From contig JAISEO010000088.1 in NCBI GenBank assembly GCA_031264075.1, positions 1-53,067 on the forward strand: a stretch of 53,067 bases of DNA, written 5' to 3'. This document shows positions 38,444 to 47,450 of the stretch, one piece after another (positions within the stretch are counted from its first letter, which is position 1; each line of letters starts with the position of its first letter). The stretch is from Coriobacteriales bacterium. Lineage in GTDB: Bacteria; Actinomycetota; Coriobacteriia; Coriobacteriales; UBA8131. The notes under the pieces are model-generated. The model saw nothing but the letters and a program-made list of their open reading frames with translations. It had not been told where the DNA came from and did not search any database. Made by a program: the position numbers and the translations under genes.

Positions 38444-38599
38444 TCTGTCGCTCGCCCTGCGAAACGATATACTTACTCTCATCATGTGAATCTGCAGGCC
38501 GGATGGCGTGTACGCGTGTGCGGTGTCTCTGCACAGTACGCGCCGTGGCGCCGTATGCTCCAGCCTGCCGGGCAGTACGTTAAAAGGAATGTAACCAGA

Positions 38600-41500
38600 G
38601 TGAGTACTCCCAGCTTGTTGGGTATAGATGTTGGCTCGACCACCGTAAAGTGTGCGGTCCTGGACGCGGAGCGCAGGCTGCTCTATTCCGACTACCAGCG
38701 CCACCATACCGACATACGCGCCACTATCACCGAGATGCTTACCGCCGCCGCCGCGCGCTTTGGTGAGCAGGAGTTTATCGTGGCCATTACCGGCTCGGGC
38801 GGCCTGCTCCTGGCACAGTGGCTCGAGCTTCCCTTTATCCAGGAGGTCATCGCCTCCAAGACGGCGGTGGAGCTGTGTATCCCTGCGACGGACGTGGCCA
38901 TTGAGCTCGGCGGTGAGGATGCCAAGATAATCTATTTTGACCACGGCATCGAGCAGCGCATGAACGGCACCTGCGCGGGCGGCACCGGCTCCTTCATAGA
39001 CCAGATGGCGGTGCTGCTCAACACCGACGCGCTCGGCCTCAACGCCCTGGCGGCGGATGCCGAGATTATCTATCCTATCGCGAGCCGCTGCGGCGTGTTT
39101 GCCAAGACCGATGTACAACCCCTGCTCAACGAGGGCGCGCGCCGCGAGGACATAGCCGCCTCCATCTTTCAGAGCGTGGTAACGCAGACCATCGGCGGGC
39201 TCGCCTGCGGTCGTCCTATCCGGGGCAACGTCGCATTCCTCGGCGGCCCGCTCCAGTACCTGCCTGAGCTGCAGAAGCGTTTTGAGCTGAGCCTCAAGCT
39301 CGCGCCCGAGCAGGTACAGAAGCCCGAGAACGCCCATCTCTTCGTAGCTCAGGGTGCGGCACTCGCCGTGGCGCGGGAGGCGGGCACCTCGCTAACCGCC
39401 CCTACCTTCACCCTCCAGGAGATCCTCACCCGTCTCGGCGCACTCGGTACCACGCAGGGCTCCGAGGTGCATCGCCTCAATCCGCTGTTCGCGAGCGAGG
39501 CGGACTATGAGAGTTTCCAGAAGCGACACACGCAGTCCTCCGTGCCCCGGGGCGATATAGCCAGCTACCTAGGCACGGCCTTCCTCGGCATTGACGCGGG
39601 CTCCACCACCTTCAAGGCGGTGCTTACCGGCGAGGAGGGCGAGCTGCTCGCCGAGTATTACACAAGCAATAAGGGAGAGGTGTTGGAAACCGCCCGGCGC
39701 TCCCTCCTTGAGATATTCGCGGCCATCCCTGTGGATGAGGCAACGGGCGAGCCCCTCATCAGCATCGGCCATACCACCGTGACCGGCTATGGCGAGGCGC
39801 TGCTCCTCGAAGCCCTGCAGGCGGACAGCGGAGAGATAGAGACCATCGCGCACCTCCGAGGCGCGCAGGCCCTCCTGCCCGACGTCGAGTTCATCCTCGA
39901 CATTGGCGGCCAGGACATGAAGTGCCTGCGCATCCGCGACGGCGTCATCGACCATATCATGCTCAACGAGGCCTGTTCCAGTGGCTGCGGCTCCTTCATC
40001 GAGACCTTTGCCCACAGCATGCAGATGGACGTGAGGGAGTTTGCCCGGGCAGCACTGGGCGCAACAAGCCCCGTGGACCTCGGCAGCCGCTGCACGGTGT
40101 TCATGAACTCGCGTGTCAAGCAGGCCCAGAAAGAAGGCGCGACCATAGGCGACATCTCCGCTGGGCTTTCGTATTCGGTCATCAAAAACGCGCTCTTCAA
40201 AGTCATCAAGATTCGCGACCCCAGAGACGTGGGCAACAAGGTCATCGTCCAGGGCGGCACCTTTCTCAACGACGCGGTGCTGCGTTCCTTTGAGCTGATG
40301 AGTGGCTGCGAGGCCGTGCGTCCGGACATTGCCGGCCTGATGGGGGCCTACGGTGCCTCGCTGCTTGCCAAAGACCGCTTTGCAGCCGCTCAGGATGGCA
40401 CGGGCACGAGCACGCTGCTCAGCGCCGCCGACATCGCCGGCCTCAAGGTGAGCCACCGCACGACGCACTGCAAGGCCTGTTCAAACAGCTGCCTGCTCAC
40501 CATCAGCAGCTTTGGCACCGACGAGCACACCGGCAAAACACGTCGCTTCATCACCGGCAATCGGTGTGAGAAGGGGGCCGGCATCAAGCCTCTCGTGGCC
40601 GACCTCCCCAACCTCTTTGCCTGGAAGTACCGCCGCCTGTTTGAGGGAACAGAGCACAACCCCTATCTTTCCCTGAGCGCCGAGGAGGCCACGCGGCCCA
40701 CCGTAGGCCTGCCGCGCGTGCTGAATATGTATGAGAACTACCCCTTCTGGTTCACGCTCTTCAGGGAGCTGGGCTTTGCGACGGTCCTGAGTGACGAGTC
40801 TGACAGCAGCACCTACGAGCGCGGGCTGGAATCCATGCCTTCGGAGAGTGTGTGCTATCCGGCCAAGCTGGCACACGGCCACATCATGAACCTCCTGGAG
40901 AAGGCGCAGGATTCTGGTATCGATATCATCTTCATGCCCTGTATCCGCCATGAGCGCAAGGAGGACGAAGGCGCTCCCAACCACTTCAACTGCCCCGTCG
41001 TGGTGAGTTATCCCGAGGTCATCAAACTCAACGTGGACGAGCTTGAGCAGGGCACGGCCGAGCCCGTCTTTCTCAACCCGTTTCTGCCCTATGACAGCAA
41101 GGAACTCCTCCCCAGGCGCCTGAGGCAGGAGCTGGATACCTGGTGGGCCGCGCATCCCCACGCAAAGGGTACGCCGCCCACGCTCGCGGAGCTTGTTGCC
41201 GCCGTTGATGCGGCCTGGGCCGAGGACGAACGCTTCAAGCAGGAGCTGCGCGATGAGGGTGAGCGGGTCCTCAGCTGGCTCGAGGAGACCCATCAGCACG
41301 GCATCGTGTTGGCTGGCCGGCCCTATCACCTCGATCCGGAGATCAACCACGCCATACCGGAGCTTCTGGCCTCGTATGGTCAGGCAGTGCTCACCGAGGA
41401 CAGCGTGTCGCACCTGCTCAAACCGGAGCGCCCGCTCCGGGTCGTTGACCAGTGGATGTTCCACAGCAGGCTCTACGCGGCGGCCAAGTATGTCACCACC

Positions 41501-43021
41501 AGGAGCGACCTCGACCTCATCCAACTCAACAGCTTCGGCTGCGGCCTCGACGCACTCACCACCGACCAGGTACAGGAGATACTGGAGCCGGCCGGCAAGG
41601 TCTATACCGTGCTCAAGATTGACGAGATCTCCAATCTGGGAGCAGCGCGTATCCGTATCCGAAGCCTGCTTGCCGCCCTCAGAGACAAGCAGGAGGAGGC
41701 ATCCGCGTCAAGCACGATCGCAGCCGCAGCCGCGACACAGGCTCTCTCCACCGCCATCGAACGACCTCAGTATACCGAGAACATGAAGGCCGAGGGCTAC
41801 ACCATTCTGGCACCGCAGATGGCACCCATCCACTTTGAGCTGCTCGGCGTGCTGTTCCACTACGGCGGCTACAATCTCGAACTTCTGCCCAGCGTTGACC
41901 AGGGAGCGGTGGAGGCCGGCCTCAAATACACCAACAACGATATCTGCTATCCCTCCATCCTCACTACCGGGCAGATTATGGAGGCCGTCACCTCGGGACG
42001 CTATGACCTGGACAGGACTGCCGTCATCATCACCCAGACGGGCGGCGGCTGCAGGGCCACCAACTACATCGGGCTTATCCGCAAGGCTCTCAGAGAATAT
42101 GGCGCGCCTCAGATTCCGGTCATCGGGTTGAGCTTTCACAAGGGTCTCGGCGAGACACACCCCGGCTTTACGGTGCCGATGAGTCTCTTGCGCCGCGCGG
42201 TCTATGTGTTCCTGTACGGCGACCTTCTCATGCAGTGCCTGTATCGTACGCGGCCCTATGAGGCAGTGCCCGGCTCGGCCCAGAAGCTCTACCGGCACTG
42301 GATGGAGCGCTGCAAGGAGCAGATTGGCACCAAGGTCAACCGCTGCATATTCAAGCGCACGGTGAGGCAGATGATACGCGACTTTGACGAGCTTGAGCTC
42401 ACCGGCGACGGGAGCAAGCCGCGCGTGGGCGTCGTCGGGGAGATCCTCGTCAAGTTCCATCCCACGGCAAACAACGGCATCGTCGAGACCATCGAGAATG
42501 AGGGCTGTGAGTGCGTGGTGCCGGGCCTCACGGAGTTCTTCCTCTTCGGTATCAGTGGCGGCATCTGGCAGCATCGCCAACTCACCAAGCCGCTTAAGAG
42601 CGAGTTGGGCACCCGGGCATCGCTCGCCCTGCTGAGCGCCTGGCGAAGACCCCTCACCCGGGCCCTCGCCCAATCAAAACGCTTTCATCCTCCGGCGGAT
42701 ATTTACGAGCTGGCCAGCTATGCCAGCGAGATACTCAGCCTCTGCAACAGCATGGGGGAGGGCTGGCTGCTCACCGCCGAGATGGTCGAGCTCATCAAGA
42801 CCGGCGTGCCCAATATCGTTTGCACCCAGCCCTTTGCCTGCCTGCCCAACCATGTCACGGGCAAGGGGGTTATCAAGGAGTTGCGCCGGCGGTATCCGGA
42901 GAGCAACATCGTGGCGGTGGACTACGACCCGGGTGCGAGCGAGGTCAACCAGCTCAACCGCATCAAGTTGATGATCAGCGTTGCCAAGGCCAACTTCAAC
43001 GGAACGGCGCATGAACACTGA
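38600..43021 (+). CDS. Fused 2-hydroxyacyl-CoA dehydratase activator-related protein (two ASKHA ATPase/Fe-S modules plus dehydratase-like domains)
   Basis: GIDVGSTT and [14 protein letters not shown] and GGQDMK, CAGGTG and [26 protein letters not shown]; start moved to GTG 38600. Confidence 0.9.
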
Positions 43022-43581: not shown

Positions 43582-44220
43582 TCAGGCGGTGACGAGCTCG
43601 GCTGCCATGATGGCGGCAGAGCCGGCGTCGGGGGTATAGCCGTCGGCACCAATCTCGTCGGCGAACTTCTGCGTTACCGGGGCACCGCCAACCATGATCT
43701 TGACCTGATCGCGCAGGCCAGCCTTGTTGACGGCAGCGATAGCCTCGGGAACCATGGGCAGCGTCGTGGTGAGCAGGGCCGAGAGGCAGAGCAGCTGGCA
43801 CTCGGGGTGTTCCTGAAGATACTCGACAAAGGCCTCGGGCTTGACGTCCACGCCCAGGTCGGTAATCTCTATGCCCTTGCCCTCTATCATCATGCGCACG
43901 AGGTTCTTGCCAATGTCGTGCATGTCGCCCTGCACGGTGCCGATAACGGCATAGCCCAGAGGCTCACTGCCCTCCTCGACAAGCGAAGGCTTGAGCACGG
44001 TGGTACCCGCGGTCATCGCCCGTGCGGCCACGAGCATCTCGGGAACAAAGACCTCGTTTCGGCTGAACTTGTCGCCTATGATGGTCATGGCATCGATGAG
44101 GCCTTCGTTGAGGATTGTCTTGGGATCCATGCCCTCGTCAAGCGCCTGTTGGGTCAGCGCGGCAACAGCCTTTCTATTGCCAGCCTGTACTGCCTGCGAA
44201 AGCTCCTCTAATAACGCCAC
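43582..44220 (-). CDS. Corrinoid (B12-binding) methyl-carrier protein
   Basis: Cap domain FVPEML; GDMHDIGKNLV, SALLT, MVGGAP; RBS AGGAGG before GTG 44220. Confidence 0.93.
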   Translation of the reverse strand: MALLEELSQAVQAGNRKAVAALTQQALDEGMDPKTILNEGLIDAMTIIGDKFSRNEVFVPEMLVAARAMTAGTTVLKPSLVEEGSEPLGYAVIGTVQGDMHDIGKNLVRMMIEGKGIEITDLGVDVKPEAFVEYLQEHPECQLLCLSALLTTTLPMVPEAIAAVNKAGLRDQVKIMVGGAPVTQKFADEIGADGYTPDAGSAAIMAAELVTA

Positions 44221-44444
44221 TGCTGCCTCCTGTATGTCCCGATCCGTCAATCAGTAGACTATACCATACCCGGGATGACTTCACCAAAAGGCGAGACAAT
44301 TCCGCAGGCGAGTTACGTCATAACTCTACGCTCTGAGTGAGCATCCAGTCTCTGTTAGTTGTGTAATATAATGAGTTGGGGCAGCGTCTGCCAGACGGGT
44401 ACGCCTCCCTTGGGTCTTTTGGCCCGGGAAGGAGGTGATTACCT

Positions 44445-44567
44445 TTGGAAGCTCTCATGATCTTTGGTGCGCTCGCGTCGATATTTTCGGCGGCAGCAGT
44501 GGCTTGGGATTTAGGGGGCAGAGTCTGGCGCTGGATGCGCCAGGACAGCAAGAAGCGAAAGCCATGA
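44445..44567 (+). CDS. Candidate type I toxin: 40-aa hydrophobic peptide with basic tail
   Basis: TATAAT 44367-44372; SD AAGGAGGTGA before TTG 44445; MEALMIFGALASIFSAAAVAWDLGGRVWRWMRQDSKKRKP. Confidence 0.65.
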   Translation: MEALMIFGALASIFSAAAVAWDLGGRVWRWMRQDSKKRKP

Positions 44568-44632
44568 GGCTTTCGCTTCACAAAGTTTTGGCGTACCCGT
44601 CGGCCTAGCAAGCCACACGGCGGGCGCTGCCT
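44546..44632 (-). ncRNA. Candidate antisense antitoxin RNA (ends approximate)
   Basis: Minus-strand TTGCAT (44668-44663), 18 bp, TG-extended TATCAT (44644-44639); 12-bp stem hairpin at 44552-44579 as terminator. Confidence 0.45.
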
Positions 44633-44678
44633 TCAACCATGATACCACAGGGGATGTTGGCGATGCAACTTTGTGGAC

Positions 44679-46028
44679 TCAGCTCTGTCTGAGCGCGAGG
44701 AAGTCCCTGCCGGAAAGCCAACTCAGGGTGCAGGCGCCGGTGGGACACAGCTGCACACAGGCGCTACAGCCGAGGCAGCACAGCTGGTCGGTAATGGCAG
44801 CCTGTTTGCCCTGCGGGCGTTCTGCTTCTGGGAGCTTGCCAAAGTACAGGACGGACGTACTGCTGATAAGACGCCGCGCATTGAGAGGACAGGCAGAGAC
44901 ACAGGTGCCGCAGCCGGTACAAACCGCTGCCTCAGTGGCGGCAGAGAGCAGCTCCACCCTGTCTGCCAAGGTCTCATCCTGCTCCAAGGCAGACCGCAGG
45001 AGCCCACGACGCTGACTTTTTTTGCCAAACGGGCGGGGCGCGTTATGGTCAGGCGGCTTTGCCTTCCTGGTCTGCTTGCGCCTCTGCGCCAAGAGTTCGG
45101 CCCGGTTCTTCTCTCGAGTGAGGCTGCCCCCGGCACTTTTCCAGCTCCGTTTGAATCCGTCTGCCAGCTGCGTCACCAATTCGCGCCGGTCATCGGAAGC
45201 CACATCGCCGAGCGCGGACATGAGGGTGCCCGCGGGAGTGTTGCGCAGCTGTTCTGGCTCGCTCACCAGTTCGATGTTGTCCGCACCCCAGGCCTCGGCC
45301 TCGTCAATGGCCGCGAGGTAGCTGTTCTCAGCGTCCCCACAGATATTGACCGGACAGTCCTCGCAGATGAGCGGCGGAAGATACACCTTCAGGATGCCGG
45401 ACTCCAAACTCTCCTCATCAGGGTCGGGGAGGATGGCGTCACGCGCCTGTGCGGCTGCCCGGAACCATTCTTCGCAGGAGAGATCCGCCAGACACGGGAG
45501 GCTGAGGGCCTGCGCGGCAAGGCGTGACGGAACACCGTACAGCGAGCGGGCACAGCCAAGCGCGATTCCATCTGCCTCAGCCACCTTGTCCTTGAGTTGC
45601 TTCTCAAGGCTCTTGGGATGGCGTTTGGTCGCGGTGAGGGCCTCAAGCGGGCAGACCGCAGTACAGATGCCGCAGTGGATACAGGATTCGCCTACCGTGA
45701 CCCCCAGCTTTGTTTCAAGCAGCTCCTTGGCGCTGAGCTTGGGTTTTTCTGCTCCGCTGCTCGCACCGGCATCTGCTCCCGCATCGGGTTCGCTCCCCGC
45801 GCTGACCGTTGCGTCCCGCGTTGTCTCGACCGCTGCCGCTGGCACATCCGACGCCCGTACCAGGGCTTTGGGCGTGATGGCAGAGACCGGGCAGGCCTGG
45901 GCACAGATGTCGCAATCCGTAGGCTCCCTGGCAACACGCAGACAGCGCGAGGGCAGGGGCGTCATCGCGCCGGCGCCAAAGTCCAGTTGGGTCTCGTGGT
46001 CCTGCGTATCGTTTGTGGCCTCATTCAT
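44679..46028 (-). CDS. Multi-4Fe-4S (polyferredoxin-like) protein
   Basis: CDICAQACP, CIHCGICTAVCP, CTGCGTCVSACP, CLGCSACVQLCP; only the C-terminal part of the listed 860-aa ORF looks real. Confidence 0.8.
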   Translation of the reverse strand: MNEATNDTQDHETQLDFGAGAMTPLPSRCLRVAREPTDCDICAQACPVSAITPKALVRASDVPAAAVETTRDATVSAGSEPDAGADAGASSGAEKPKLSAKELLETKLGVTVGESCIHCGICTAVCPLEALTATKRHPKSLEKQLKDKVAEADGIALGCARSLYGVPSRLAAQALSLPCLADLSCEEWFRAAAQARDAILPDPDEESLESGILKVYLPPLICEDCPVNICGDAENSYLAAIDEAEAWGADNIELVSEPEQLRNTPAGTLMSALGDVASDDRRELVTQLADGFKRSWKSAGGSLTREKNRAELLAQRRKQTRKAKPPDHNAPRPFGKKSQRRGLLRSALEQDETLADRVELLSAATEAAVCTGCGTCVSACPLNARRLISSTSVLYFGKLPEAERPQGKQAAITDQLCCLGCSACVQLCPTGACTLSWLSGRDFLALRQS

Positions 46029-46151
46029 TTCAGGTTTATCATAGCGCATGTTGGGGGATTTTGGGAAACTCCCCACTCTTACTCGGCAACTTTCCCGTAG
46101 TATAATGTGCGGAAGTCCCCGGAGCAGGTCCCAGAATAGTCCCAAGAGTGA

Positions 46152-47450
<1,299 letters not shown>

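Follow-up and report, generated by a model that had tools for sequence, protein, structure and literature searches.

In Fst/RNAII (par of pAD1; Fst/Ldr superfamily), a toxin-antitoxin (TA) system of type I, two convergent RNAs are paired with a peptide of 30-40 amino acids that has one helix and a charged tail, and the structure of the mRNA limits its translation. The hok and aapA mRNAs combine a 5'-3' long-distance interaction with co-transcriptional hairpins at the Shine-Dalgarno (SD) sequence and with mutually exclusive conformers (PMC6733600), and the antisense RNA SR4 recruits RNase III to the bsrG mRNA and induces a distant structural change that obscures its ribosome-binding site (PMC5848175). 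An antisense RNA overlapping the toxin mRNA at its 3' end is a described layout of Gram-positive type I systems (PMC8594479). Most known type I families come from Bacillota and Proteobacteria (PMC5367252, PMC8594479), and each of them, as a rule, stays within a single phylum or even a single family (PMC5367252). Here we analyzed a 53,067-nt contig (JAISEO010000088.1 of assembly GCA_031264075.1; hereafter the window) from a Coriobacteriales bacterium, in which an element of ~290 nt occupies a gap (44251-44678) between two minus-strand metabolic genes. This element (44367-44668) is probably a self-contained two-RNA module of the type I TA type, belonging to a family not described so far.

The plus strand of the element would be transcribed from a -10 box, TATAAT (44367-44372), that lies behind a poor -35 region and has TATAAT, TATACT or TGcTATAAT as its counterpart at the equivalent place in other copies. 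The resulting mRNA of ~260 nt, with a predicted 5' end at ~44379, would encode a 40-residue, one-helix peptide (MEALMIFGALASIFSAAAVAWDLGGRVWRWMRQDSKKRKP, 44445-44567), the presumed toxin, and its two ends would pair with each other over ~27 bp. From a convergent promoter located outside the 3' arm of this helix, an antisense RNA of ~85-90 nt, the presumed antitoxin, would run to a hairpin at the stop codon. We infer transcription of both strands and toxicity of the peptide from conserved signals, and the direction of the switch described below from modeled folds. The initial annotation, which had seen only the letters of the window and a list of its open reading frames (ORFs) with translations, had already read a type I TA locus into the region and had staked it in part on conservation of the ORF and the pairings. 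The ORF, the pairing, the hairpin and the position of the antisense promoter turned out to be conserved across 30-odd copies, and comparison of these sequences supports that interpretation.

When the plus strand of 44373-44640 was folded, as that annotation had proposed, it reached -145.8 kcal/mol compared to -104.2 +/- 5.35 kcal/mol for 200 shuffled sequences (z -7.78), none of which folded as well, while the minus strand of the same interval folded less well (-114.9 kcal/mol, z -5.53). The long-range helix has two parts. In the outer part, the 5' outer arm (44378-44392) pairs with the 3' outer arm (44619-44633) in the minimum-energy fold, essentially where this pairing had been predicted; in the inner part, the 5' inner arm GACGGGTACGCC (44394-44405) faces the 3' inner arm GGCGTACCCGTC (44590-44601), and the perfect complementarity claimed for these 12-nt arms holds at 100%. 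A small junction hairpin (GGC-cuagcaa-GCC, 44602-44614) separates the two 3' arms in the minimum-energy fold, and similar small hairpins were seen by eye in other copies. RNAalifold analysis of 11 copies recovered the outer helix, the inner 12-bp helix, an ORF-internal hairpin (CUGGCGC/GCGCCAG, 44523-44543) and a 12-bp hairpin that carries the stop codon in its loop (44552-44579, -20.7 kcal/mol), with compensatory changes in 15 of the 41 pairs.

A larger alignment of 23 sequences strengthened this picture. Its cells were paired in 89.2% of cases, compared to 34-41% when the 3' partners were slid by 1-3 columns, and compensatory changes were found in 29 of 46 pairs. The number of compensatory cells was 136 compared to 45.5 +/- 5.5 in column shuffles, none of which (0/500) reached 136. 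The structure was derived from the same sequences, which favors it against the slid controls, and the sequences are related, which favors it against the shuffles; the margin is still large. By region, compensatory changes affected 10 of 15 pairs of the outer helix (92.5% of cells paired), 5 of 12 pairs of the inner helix (94.5% of cells paired) and 9 of 10 stem pairs of the stop-codon hairpin. The inner arm was invariant among close copies save for single changes that give G-U pairs on the plus strand, and it covaried in distant copies, as in the three copies of one genome in which GACGGGTTCGCC is matched with GGCGAACCCGTC. Since such arm changes give G-U on the plus strand and C-A on the other, they point to RNA pairing rather than to protein-binding DNA repeats. 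In 18 of 21 further loci, the 5' flank paired with the 3' flank better than in all 30 shuffles; the three exceptions include two decayed copies. Taken together, the covariation, the wobble pairs and the flank pairing indicate that the plus strand is the one that folds, with its very 5' end pairing with the 3' region.

The peptide ORF was retained in every copy. In the window, it starts with TTG 9 nt after the GGAGG of the SD sequence (AGGAGG, 44430-44435, within AAGGAGGTGA at 44429-44438) and ends with TGA (44565-44567), which agrees with the 40-codon ORF and strong SD sequence of the initial annotation. The SD sequence and start codon were conserved across copies, the start being ATG in most of them and TTG in the subgroup to which this copy belongs, and ORF length ranged from 32 to 55 amino acids (mostly 39-41). 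The spacer between GGAGG and the start codon was 7-11 nt in nine copies, and the SD-to-start spacer was 5-11 nt in 22 copies when any one of several SD-like words served as the anchor. In the five closest copies, the single indel within the ORF was 3 nt long and in frame, while the 1-nt indels all fell outside the ORF. The ratio of nonsynonymous to synonymous differences (pN/pS) was below 1 in 12 of 13 computable pairs (range 0.18-0.84), although the underlying numbers are small.

The encoded peptide consists of one hydrophobic helix followed by Trp-Arg and a basic tail rich in Lys and Arg, with the family pattern M-D/E-x-L..AAxA(S/T)I.SAL.A......(V/F)WR..R....KKRP(R)K. Only the initial Met was invariant among 34 sequences, and Trp28 and Arg29 were present in at least 90% of them. 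AlphaFold2, supplied with the family alignment, predicted a single helix spanning residues 2-36 (mean predicted local distance difference test score, 83). A hydrophobic peptide of fewer than 60 residues, encoded with its own ribosome-binding site, is a general feature of type I TA systems. The peptide had not been assigned to any family from the sequence of this copy, and all 34 members indeed fell outside every curated family: in Pfam and NCBIfam, they gave scattered sub-threshold matches to single-helix membrane proteins and hit no type I toxin model. Three copies in one genome (L117, L131 and L135 of G012) encode a 55-residue variant with ~15 extra residues in the basic tail; here the 3' inner arm begins just 5 nt past the stop codon and the hairpin lies inside the ORF. 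A consensus scanner also flagged a terminator-like hairpin with a TATTTTCGGC tail inside the peptide ORF of the window (44464-44481, plus strand). Since its T-run is found in this copy only within the subgroup, this hairpin is probably fortuitous.

We next considered the antisense gene. The convergent promoter named in the initial annotation is present on the minus strand (44639-44668), with a -35 box TTGCAT (44668-44663), an 18-nt spacer and an extended -10 box TGgTATCAT (44647-44639). Within 195 nt around the stop codon, an extended -10 (TGnTAnnnT) at this position was the best sigma-70-like site of the minus strand in 26 of 31 copies. Because it sits immediately outside the 3' outer arm, the first stretch of the antisense RNA would be complementary to that arm. 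In 30 of 31 copies, a stable hairpin (-15 to -27 kcal/mol) coincides with the stop codon or lies close to it. The tail of this hairpin reads U-rich on the minus strand, where it is the complement of Lys codons, and A-rich on the plus strand: tails with at least 5 U of 9 occurred in 16 of 31 copies on the minus strand and in none on the plus strand, and by our own count U was more abundant in the minus tail than in its plus counterpart in 29 of 31 copies. This asymmetry indicates that the hairpin is a one-way terminator of the predicted antisense RNA. Thus the hairpin at 44552-44579, which had been noted before as the end of an antisense RNA, is by its sequence a predicted intrinsic terminator for the antisense strand only (tail 44551-44543) and not the 3' end of the mRNA. 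The candidate antitoxin RNA would extend from ~44632 to ~44545 on the minus strand, with both ends deduced from the promoter position and from the hairpin and its tail, and would be complementary to the last codons, the 3' inner arm, the junction hairpin and the 3' outer arm of the mRNA. By eye, the promoter and RNA 5' end of the sense strand (44367-44386) and those of the antisense strand (44644-44625, minus) are inverted near-copies of each other, so that the two RNAs would begin with nearly identical stretches of ~15 nt.

The same alignments and folds bear on how translation could be controlled. An anti-SD sequence (GCCUCCC, 44403-44409) overlaps the end of the 5' inner arm, and its CCTCC is invariant in the 11-sequence alignment. 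The initial annotation had proposed that this sequence sequesters the SD, and the claim held in part. The CGCCUCC/GGAGGUG helix forms in the nascent transcript, in transcripts lacking the 3' arm and in those whose antisense target is blocked, where the freed 5' inner arm and CCUCC make a long helix with the SD and the bases that follow it; anti-SD pairing with GGAGG was found under these conditions in all nine copies folded. It was absent from the minimum-energy fold of the full-length mRNA, in which GGAGGU pairs instead with a downstream ACCUUU that overlaps the start codon. In this closed form, the SD lies in a short hairpin and is weakly masked.

Consistent with this difference, the cost of opening the region from SD to start codon in nine copies was 4.7-8.9 kcal/mol in the closed form compared to 6.6-18.7 kcal/mol when the antisense target was blocked, and it was higher in the blocked state in all nine. 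In a wider set, 20 of 22 copies showed a rise above 1 kcal/mol (+1.6 to +9.8 kcal/mol) when the stretch covered by the antisense RNA was blocked, while a block of similar length inside the ORF produced such a rise in 6 of 22, by at most +2.5 kcal/mol. An mRNA whose folding restrains translation is a general property of type I TA systems, and the SD was paired in all predicted states of this one. Since the SD is only weakly masked when the mRNA is closed and becomes locked in a strong anti-SD helix when the 5' arm is free, the logic is probably not simply hok-like. In the scheme that we propose, the anti-SD helix would protect the nascent transcript; the 3' arm, once transcribed, would capture the 5' arm, leaving the SD in the weak hairpin and the end-to-end form translatable; and the antisense RNA, which has the same sequence as the 5' arm, would compete for the 3' arm so that the 5' arm could lock the SD again. 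The long duplex between antisense RNA and mRNA would in addition be a substrate for RNase III.

The distribution of the element fits a TA module. This genome contains three copies, of which the other two lie on another contig (84% and 76% identity), and a genome of the same genus contains two (94% and 75% identity). Homology among these five closest copies runs exactly from the sense -10 box to the antisense -35 box, with unrelated flanks, so the TATAAT at 44367 that had been proposed as the sense -10 box coincides with the left edge of the homology between paralogues. The neighbors of the three copies differ: a corrinoid protein and an Fe-S protein; a PD-(D/E)XK transposase-like protein and a nucleotidyltransferase; and RNase Y and an HD-domain protein. 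In the second of these (L002, contig 5), the element stands between a PD-(D/E)XK transposase-family gene (187-1104) and a small nucleotidyltransferase gene (2259-2612), genes of a kind often found in mobile or TA-rich regions. G004, another genome of the genus, has the corrinoid gene next to the Fe-S gene; the ~145 nt between them lack the element, and the G004 copy lies elsewhere; the spacers were too diverged to align, and base-level insertion boundaries could not be read from this empty site. The element was never in an operon with a partner gene in the contexts examined.

On a broader scale, a profile of the peptide identified 30 places, 1-3 in each genome concerned, spread over 18 of the 34 genomes and 10 of the 19 genera in the same Coriobacteriales family. 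Two of 151 sampled genomes of the class matched it, namely this one and G419, whose element is by eye arranged in the same way. A search of 1.84 billion representative proteins with the profile yielded 34 matches at E<=1e-3, 29 of them 36-47 amino acids long, and the ten that we looked up were all single metagenomic sequences, unnamed or labeled "hypothetical protein". A pattern search with the 17-nt 5'-arm motif in 401 genomes of the order returned five genomes of the same family and a match in G237 whose 3' motif had 4 mismatches and which we took as chance. In metagenomes, the 17-mer had 62 exact loci, of which three were complete copies (3' arm motif with 0-1 mismatch) and a fourth (L059) was cut by the contig end with its SD and ORF start visible; the remaining loci, 58 in number, showed 3 or more mismatches or lacked testable sequence and were taken as chance. 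Searches of plasmid and phage collections by blastn (E<=1e-3) matched nothing, and none of ten exact 17-mer matches in viral contigs was accompanied by the 3' arm motif, each showing 3 or more mismatches to it; we regarded these as chance as well. Thus the element is patchy, multi-copy and lineage-restricted, as expected of type I TA systems, and its narrow range fits with the confinement of type I families to single lineages (PMC5367252).

Some copies looked decayed or had an in-frame stop reported in their profile match: L122 and L132/L136 in G019, L124 in G043 and L118 in G047. The stop was TAA in G019:C20, whereas G047:C99 and the two G019:C71 copies had TAG. The alignment suggests for G047 and G019:C71 a true start downstream of that stop.

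Several observations weigh against the reading of the element as a type I TA module with the switch proposed above. We identified no terminator for the peptide mRNA itself. A simple consensus scanner called neither promoter, owing to their poor -35 boxes, and did not call the stop-codon hairpin as a terminator, owing to the antisense tail of this copy having just 4 U of 9, and the count of 26 in 31 copies for the promoter position was made without a shuffled control. Purifying selection on the peptide is moderate, as judged from the sequences, with one pair showing a ratio of 1.77 in the transmembrane part, and this genome's second peptide subtype (MEAFNLVAQLASIFTAMVEVVRMV...) has lower hydrophobicity. 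Furthermore, the codons for V/I/F-W-R overlie a nucleotide-invariant UCUGGCG of the ORF-internal RNA hairpin, with the codon before Trp ending in C in 11 of 11 sequences of alignment A2 (by eye) and differing in 2 of 23 sequences of alignment A5; because of this coincidence, part of the peptide conservation may be driven by the RNA. As for the switch, 2 of 22 copies showed no change when the antisense target was blocked, the SD pairing predicted in every state means that no clearly open, translatable form was found, and even the "on" state costs 5-12 kcal/mol to open. Finally, an alternative third helix (44389-44396 with 44523-44530) has no place in the proposed model. This helix joins the junction of the 5' arms to the 5' strand of the ORF-internal hairpin and excludes both the end-to-end helix and that hairpin, and it has 86.1% of its cells paired compared to 33-43% when slid, with compensatory changes in 6 of 8 pairs. 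It may be a folding intermediate, as in hok.

The third helix also implies more conformers than a two-state model holds, and we considered whether the same module could follow the logic of hok and aapA, with the closed 5'-3' form inert, activation by 3' trimming or 5' processing, and an antisense RNA that mainly triggers decay. That a 5'-3' interaction keeps the full-length toxin mRNA inert until 3' truncation is documented for hok and aapA (PMC6733600), and the helix described here uses the very 5' end of the mRNA as theirs do. However, its 3' arm does not pair with the SD, and the folds predict a tighter rather than a looser SD lock when this arm is removed or blocked (9 of 9 copies and, for blocking, 20 of 22). 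In addition, the antisense RNA would overlap the 3' end, in contrast with Sok and IsoA, which overlap the translation start region (PMC8594479). We regard control of this hok/aapA kind as rather unlikely.

A second possibility is that the peptide is a harmless small membrane protein, for example a regulatory or accessory subunit, placed under cis-antisense control, and that the element is not an addiction or defense module at all. Single-helix peptides with basic tails are common among harmless membrane proteins, the sub-threshold family matches were to CcmD, FeoB-associated and FixQ-like proteins, and a search of solved structures gave no significant sequence match, its best hits (E 0.088) being small membrane subunits such as those of cytochrome and antenna complexes. 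The distribution speaks for a different kind of gene, since the element, where present, numbers 1-3 copies per genome in unrelated locations, was not detected in roughly half of the family's genomes and leaves an empty site in a congener, while some copies look decayed and none stands in an operon with a partner gene. Moreover, translation control with several states is typical of toxic products (PMC6733600). A non-toxic membrane protein thus appears unlikely to us.

That the locus has no peptide gene and is a structured non-coding RNA, a miniature inverted-repeat mobile element or a minus-strand gene of ~100 amino acids is highly improbable, because although its terminal inverted repeats superficially resemble those of a mobile element and minus-strand frames of 97-112 amino acids are open in the three copies of this genome, the plus-strand ORF and its SD are kept despite nucleotide divergence, the minus frames vary, and no Rfam family matched. 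A miniature inverted-repeat element was rejected on the strand-specific G-U pairs and the compensatory changes in the arms. The minus-strand ORF of 97 amino acids (44318-44611) was rejected as a GC-rich artifact: the longest minus stretch free of stops is anywhere from 39 to 91 codons long, depending on the copy, and when two paralogues are translated in the minus frame, the products align in their mid-region only, with 43 of 81 positions identical and with gaps. As for Rfam, no family matched anywhere in the window at gathering thresholds, and the three local matches at E<=10 were all at chance level.

The genes on either side are metabolic. To the left lies a gene for a B12-binding corrinoid protein (43582-44250, minus strand) and to the right a gene for a 4Fe-4S protein, whose run begins at 44679 (minus strand), the two flanking ORFs being 428 nt apart in this genome. 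The ORF listed on the right (44679-47261, minus, 860 amino acids) overlaps an enolase-like ORF on the opposite strand (46158-47450) and is probably over-extended; the part from 44679 to ~46040, which was the part scanned, contains 4Fe-4S cluster domains. Farther to the left, a very long ORF (38486-43021, 1511 amino acids) resembles, judged by eye, a fusion of BcrAD/BadFG-type ATPase and dehydratase-like parts. A riboswitch or 5' leader of the corrinoid-protein gene was rejected as an explanation of the element: the structure is on the opposite strand and without an Rfam match, and the element recurs in unrelated contexts. The sequencing runs that contain this DNA are DNA assemblies labeled termite gut metagenome.

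Type I TA families are few, and one from uncultured gut Coriobacteriales would extend their range. In the literature, no paper was found for "type I toxin-antitoxin" together with Coriobacteri*, and none of the 12 titles listed, out of 29 works that pair type I toxin-antitoxin with Actinobacteria, was about such a system; this check of listings is no proof of absence. The ~30 diverged copies with covarying helices constitute a ready comparative data set, and the proposed switch, if true, would be a natural example of long-range RNA strand exchange that controls translation. The element also illustrates that the "empty" spaces between genes of metagenome-assembled genomes conceal peptide genes, which gene callers for the most part overlook or leave without a name.

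Compared with the described systems, the element is type I TA-like in the features that define function: a small hydrophobic peptide, a restraining mRNA structure and a patchy, multi-copy distribution were found, and an antisense gene is suggested by conserved signals. It resembles Fst/RNAII in its predicted convergent RNA pair, its one-helix peptide with a charged tail and its translation-limiting mRNA structure. However, none of the 34 peptides matched PF13955 or any Fst model at E<=1 and no Rfam family matched; a language-model look-up (Atlas) gave Fst-toxin and holin-like-toxin clusters as the nearest named ones, both at 0.77, which is in the chance range and thus a lead only. In Fst/RNAII, moreover, the RNAs interact elsewhere than in their overlap (PMC8594479), while the element described here has its obvious target in the overlap itself.

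The likeness to hok/Sok (plasmid R1) and aapA/IsoA (Helicobacter pylori) lies in the mRNA, which is closed by pairing of its ends, forms SD-sequestering hairpins while nascent and has several conformers. There, the SD or its activator is masked by the 3' element, the mRNA becomes active through 3' trimming and the antisense RNA covers the 5' part. In contrast, the 3' arm of this element pairs with the 5' end (44378-44405) and not with the SD (44430-44435), and its predicted antisense RNA is at the 3' end. Neither the peptides nor the RNA connect it to hok/Sok, since the 34 peptides had no Pfam match, HOK_GEF included, and no Rfam Sok match was obtained; with regard to aapA/IsoA, where an anti-SD at the 3' end pairs with the SD and IsoA overlaps the 5' part or the ORF, the 3' arm of this element lacks SD pairing and the predicted antisense RNA lies at the 3' end. 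Because the defining peptide and RNA homologies and the antisense positions of hok/Sok, aapA/IsoA and Fst/RNAII are absent, the element falls outside all three.

Parallels are also found in Bacillus subtilis. For TxpA/RatA, BsrG/SR4 and BsrE/SR5, no curated protein or RNA family matched, with the presence of models for every one of these families left unchecked. The host of the present element is an actinobacterium of the Coriobacteriales rather than a member of the Bacillota, and its antisense target is one arm of a covarying 5'-3' helix of ~27 bp; we know of no such target in the Bacillus systems. The predicted 3'-overlap gene layout is nevertheless shared with bsrG/SR4, as well as with bsrE/SR5, txpA/RatA and yonT/SR6 (PMC8594479), and the computed switch works as SR4 does on bsrG (PMC5848175). 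It is possible, and for now a tentative proposal, that this is the first type I TA family of Actinomycetota, with an antitoxin that would mimic the mRNA's 5' end, take the 3' arm of the ~27-bp helix, switch over a lock on the ribosome-binding site at a distance of 200 nt and make the mRNA a target of RNase III, the closed form being ON, the reverse of hok and aapA. Taken together, the modeled folds suggest a scheme that combines hok/aapA-like with bsrG/SR4-like logic.

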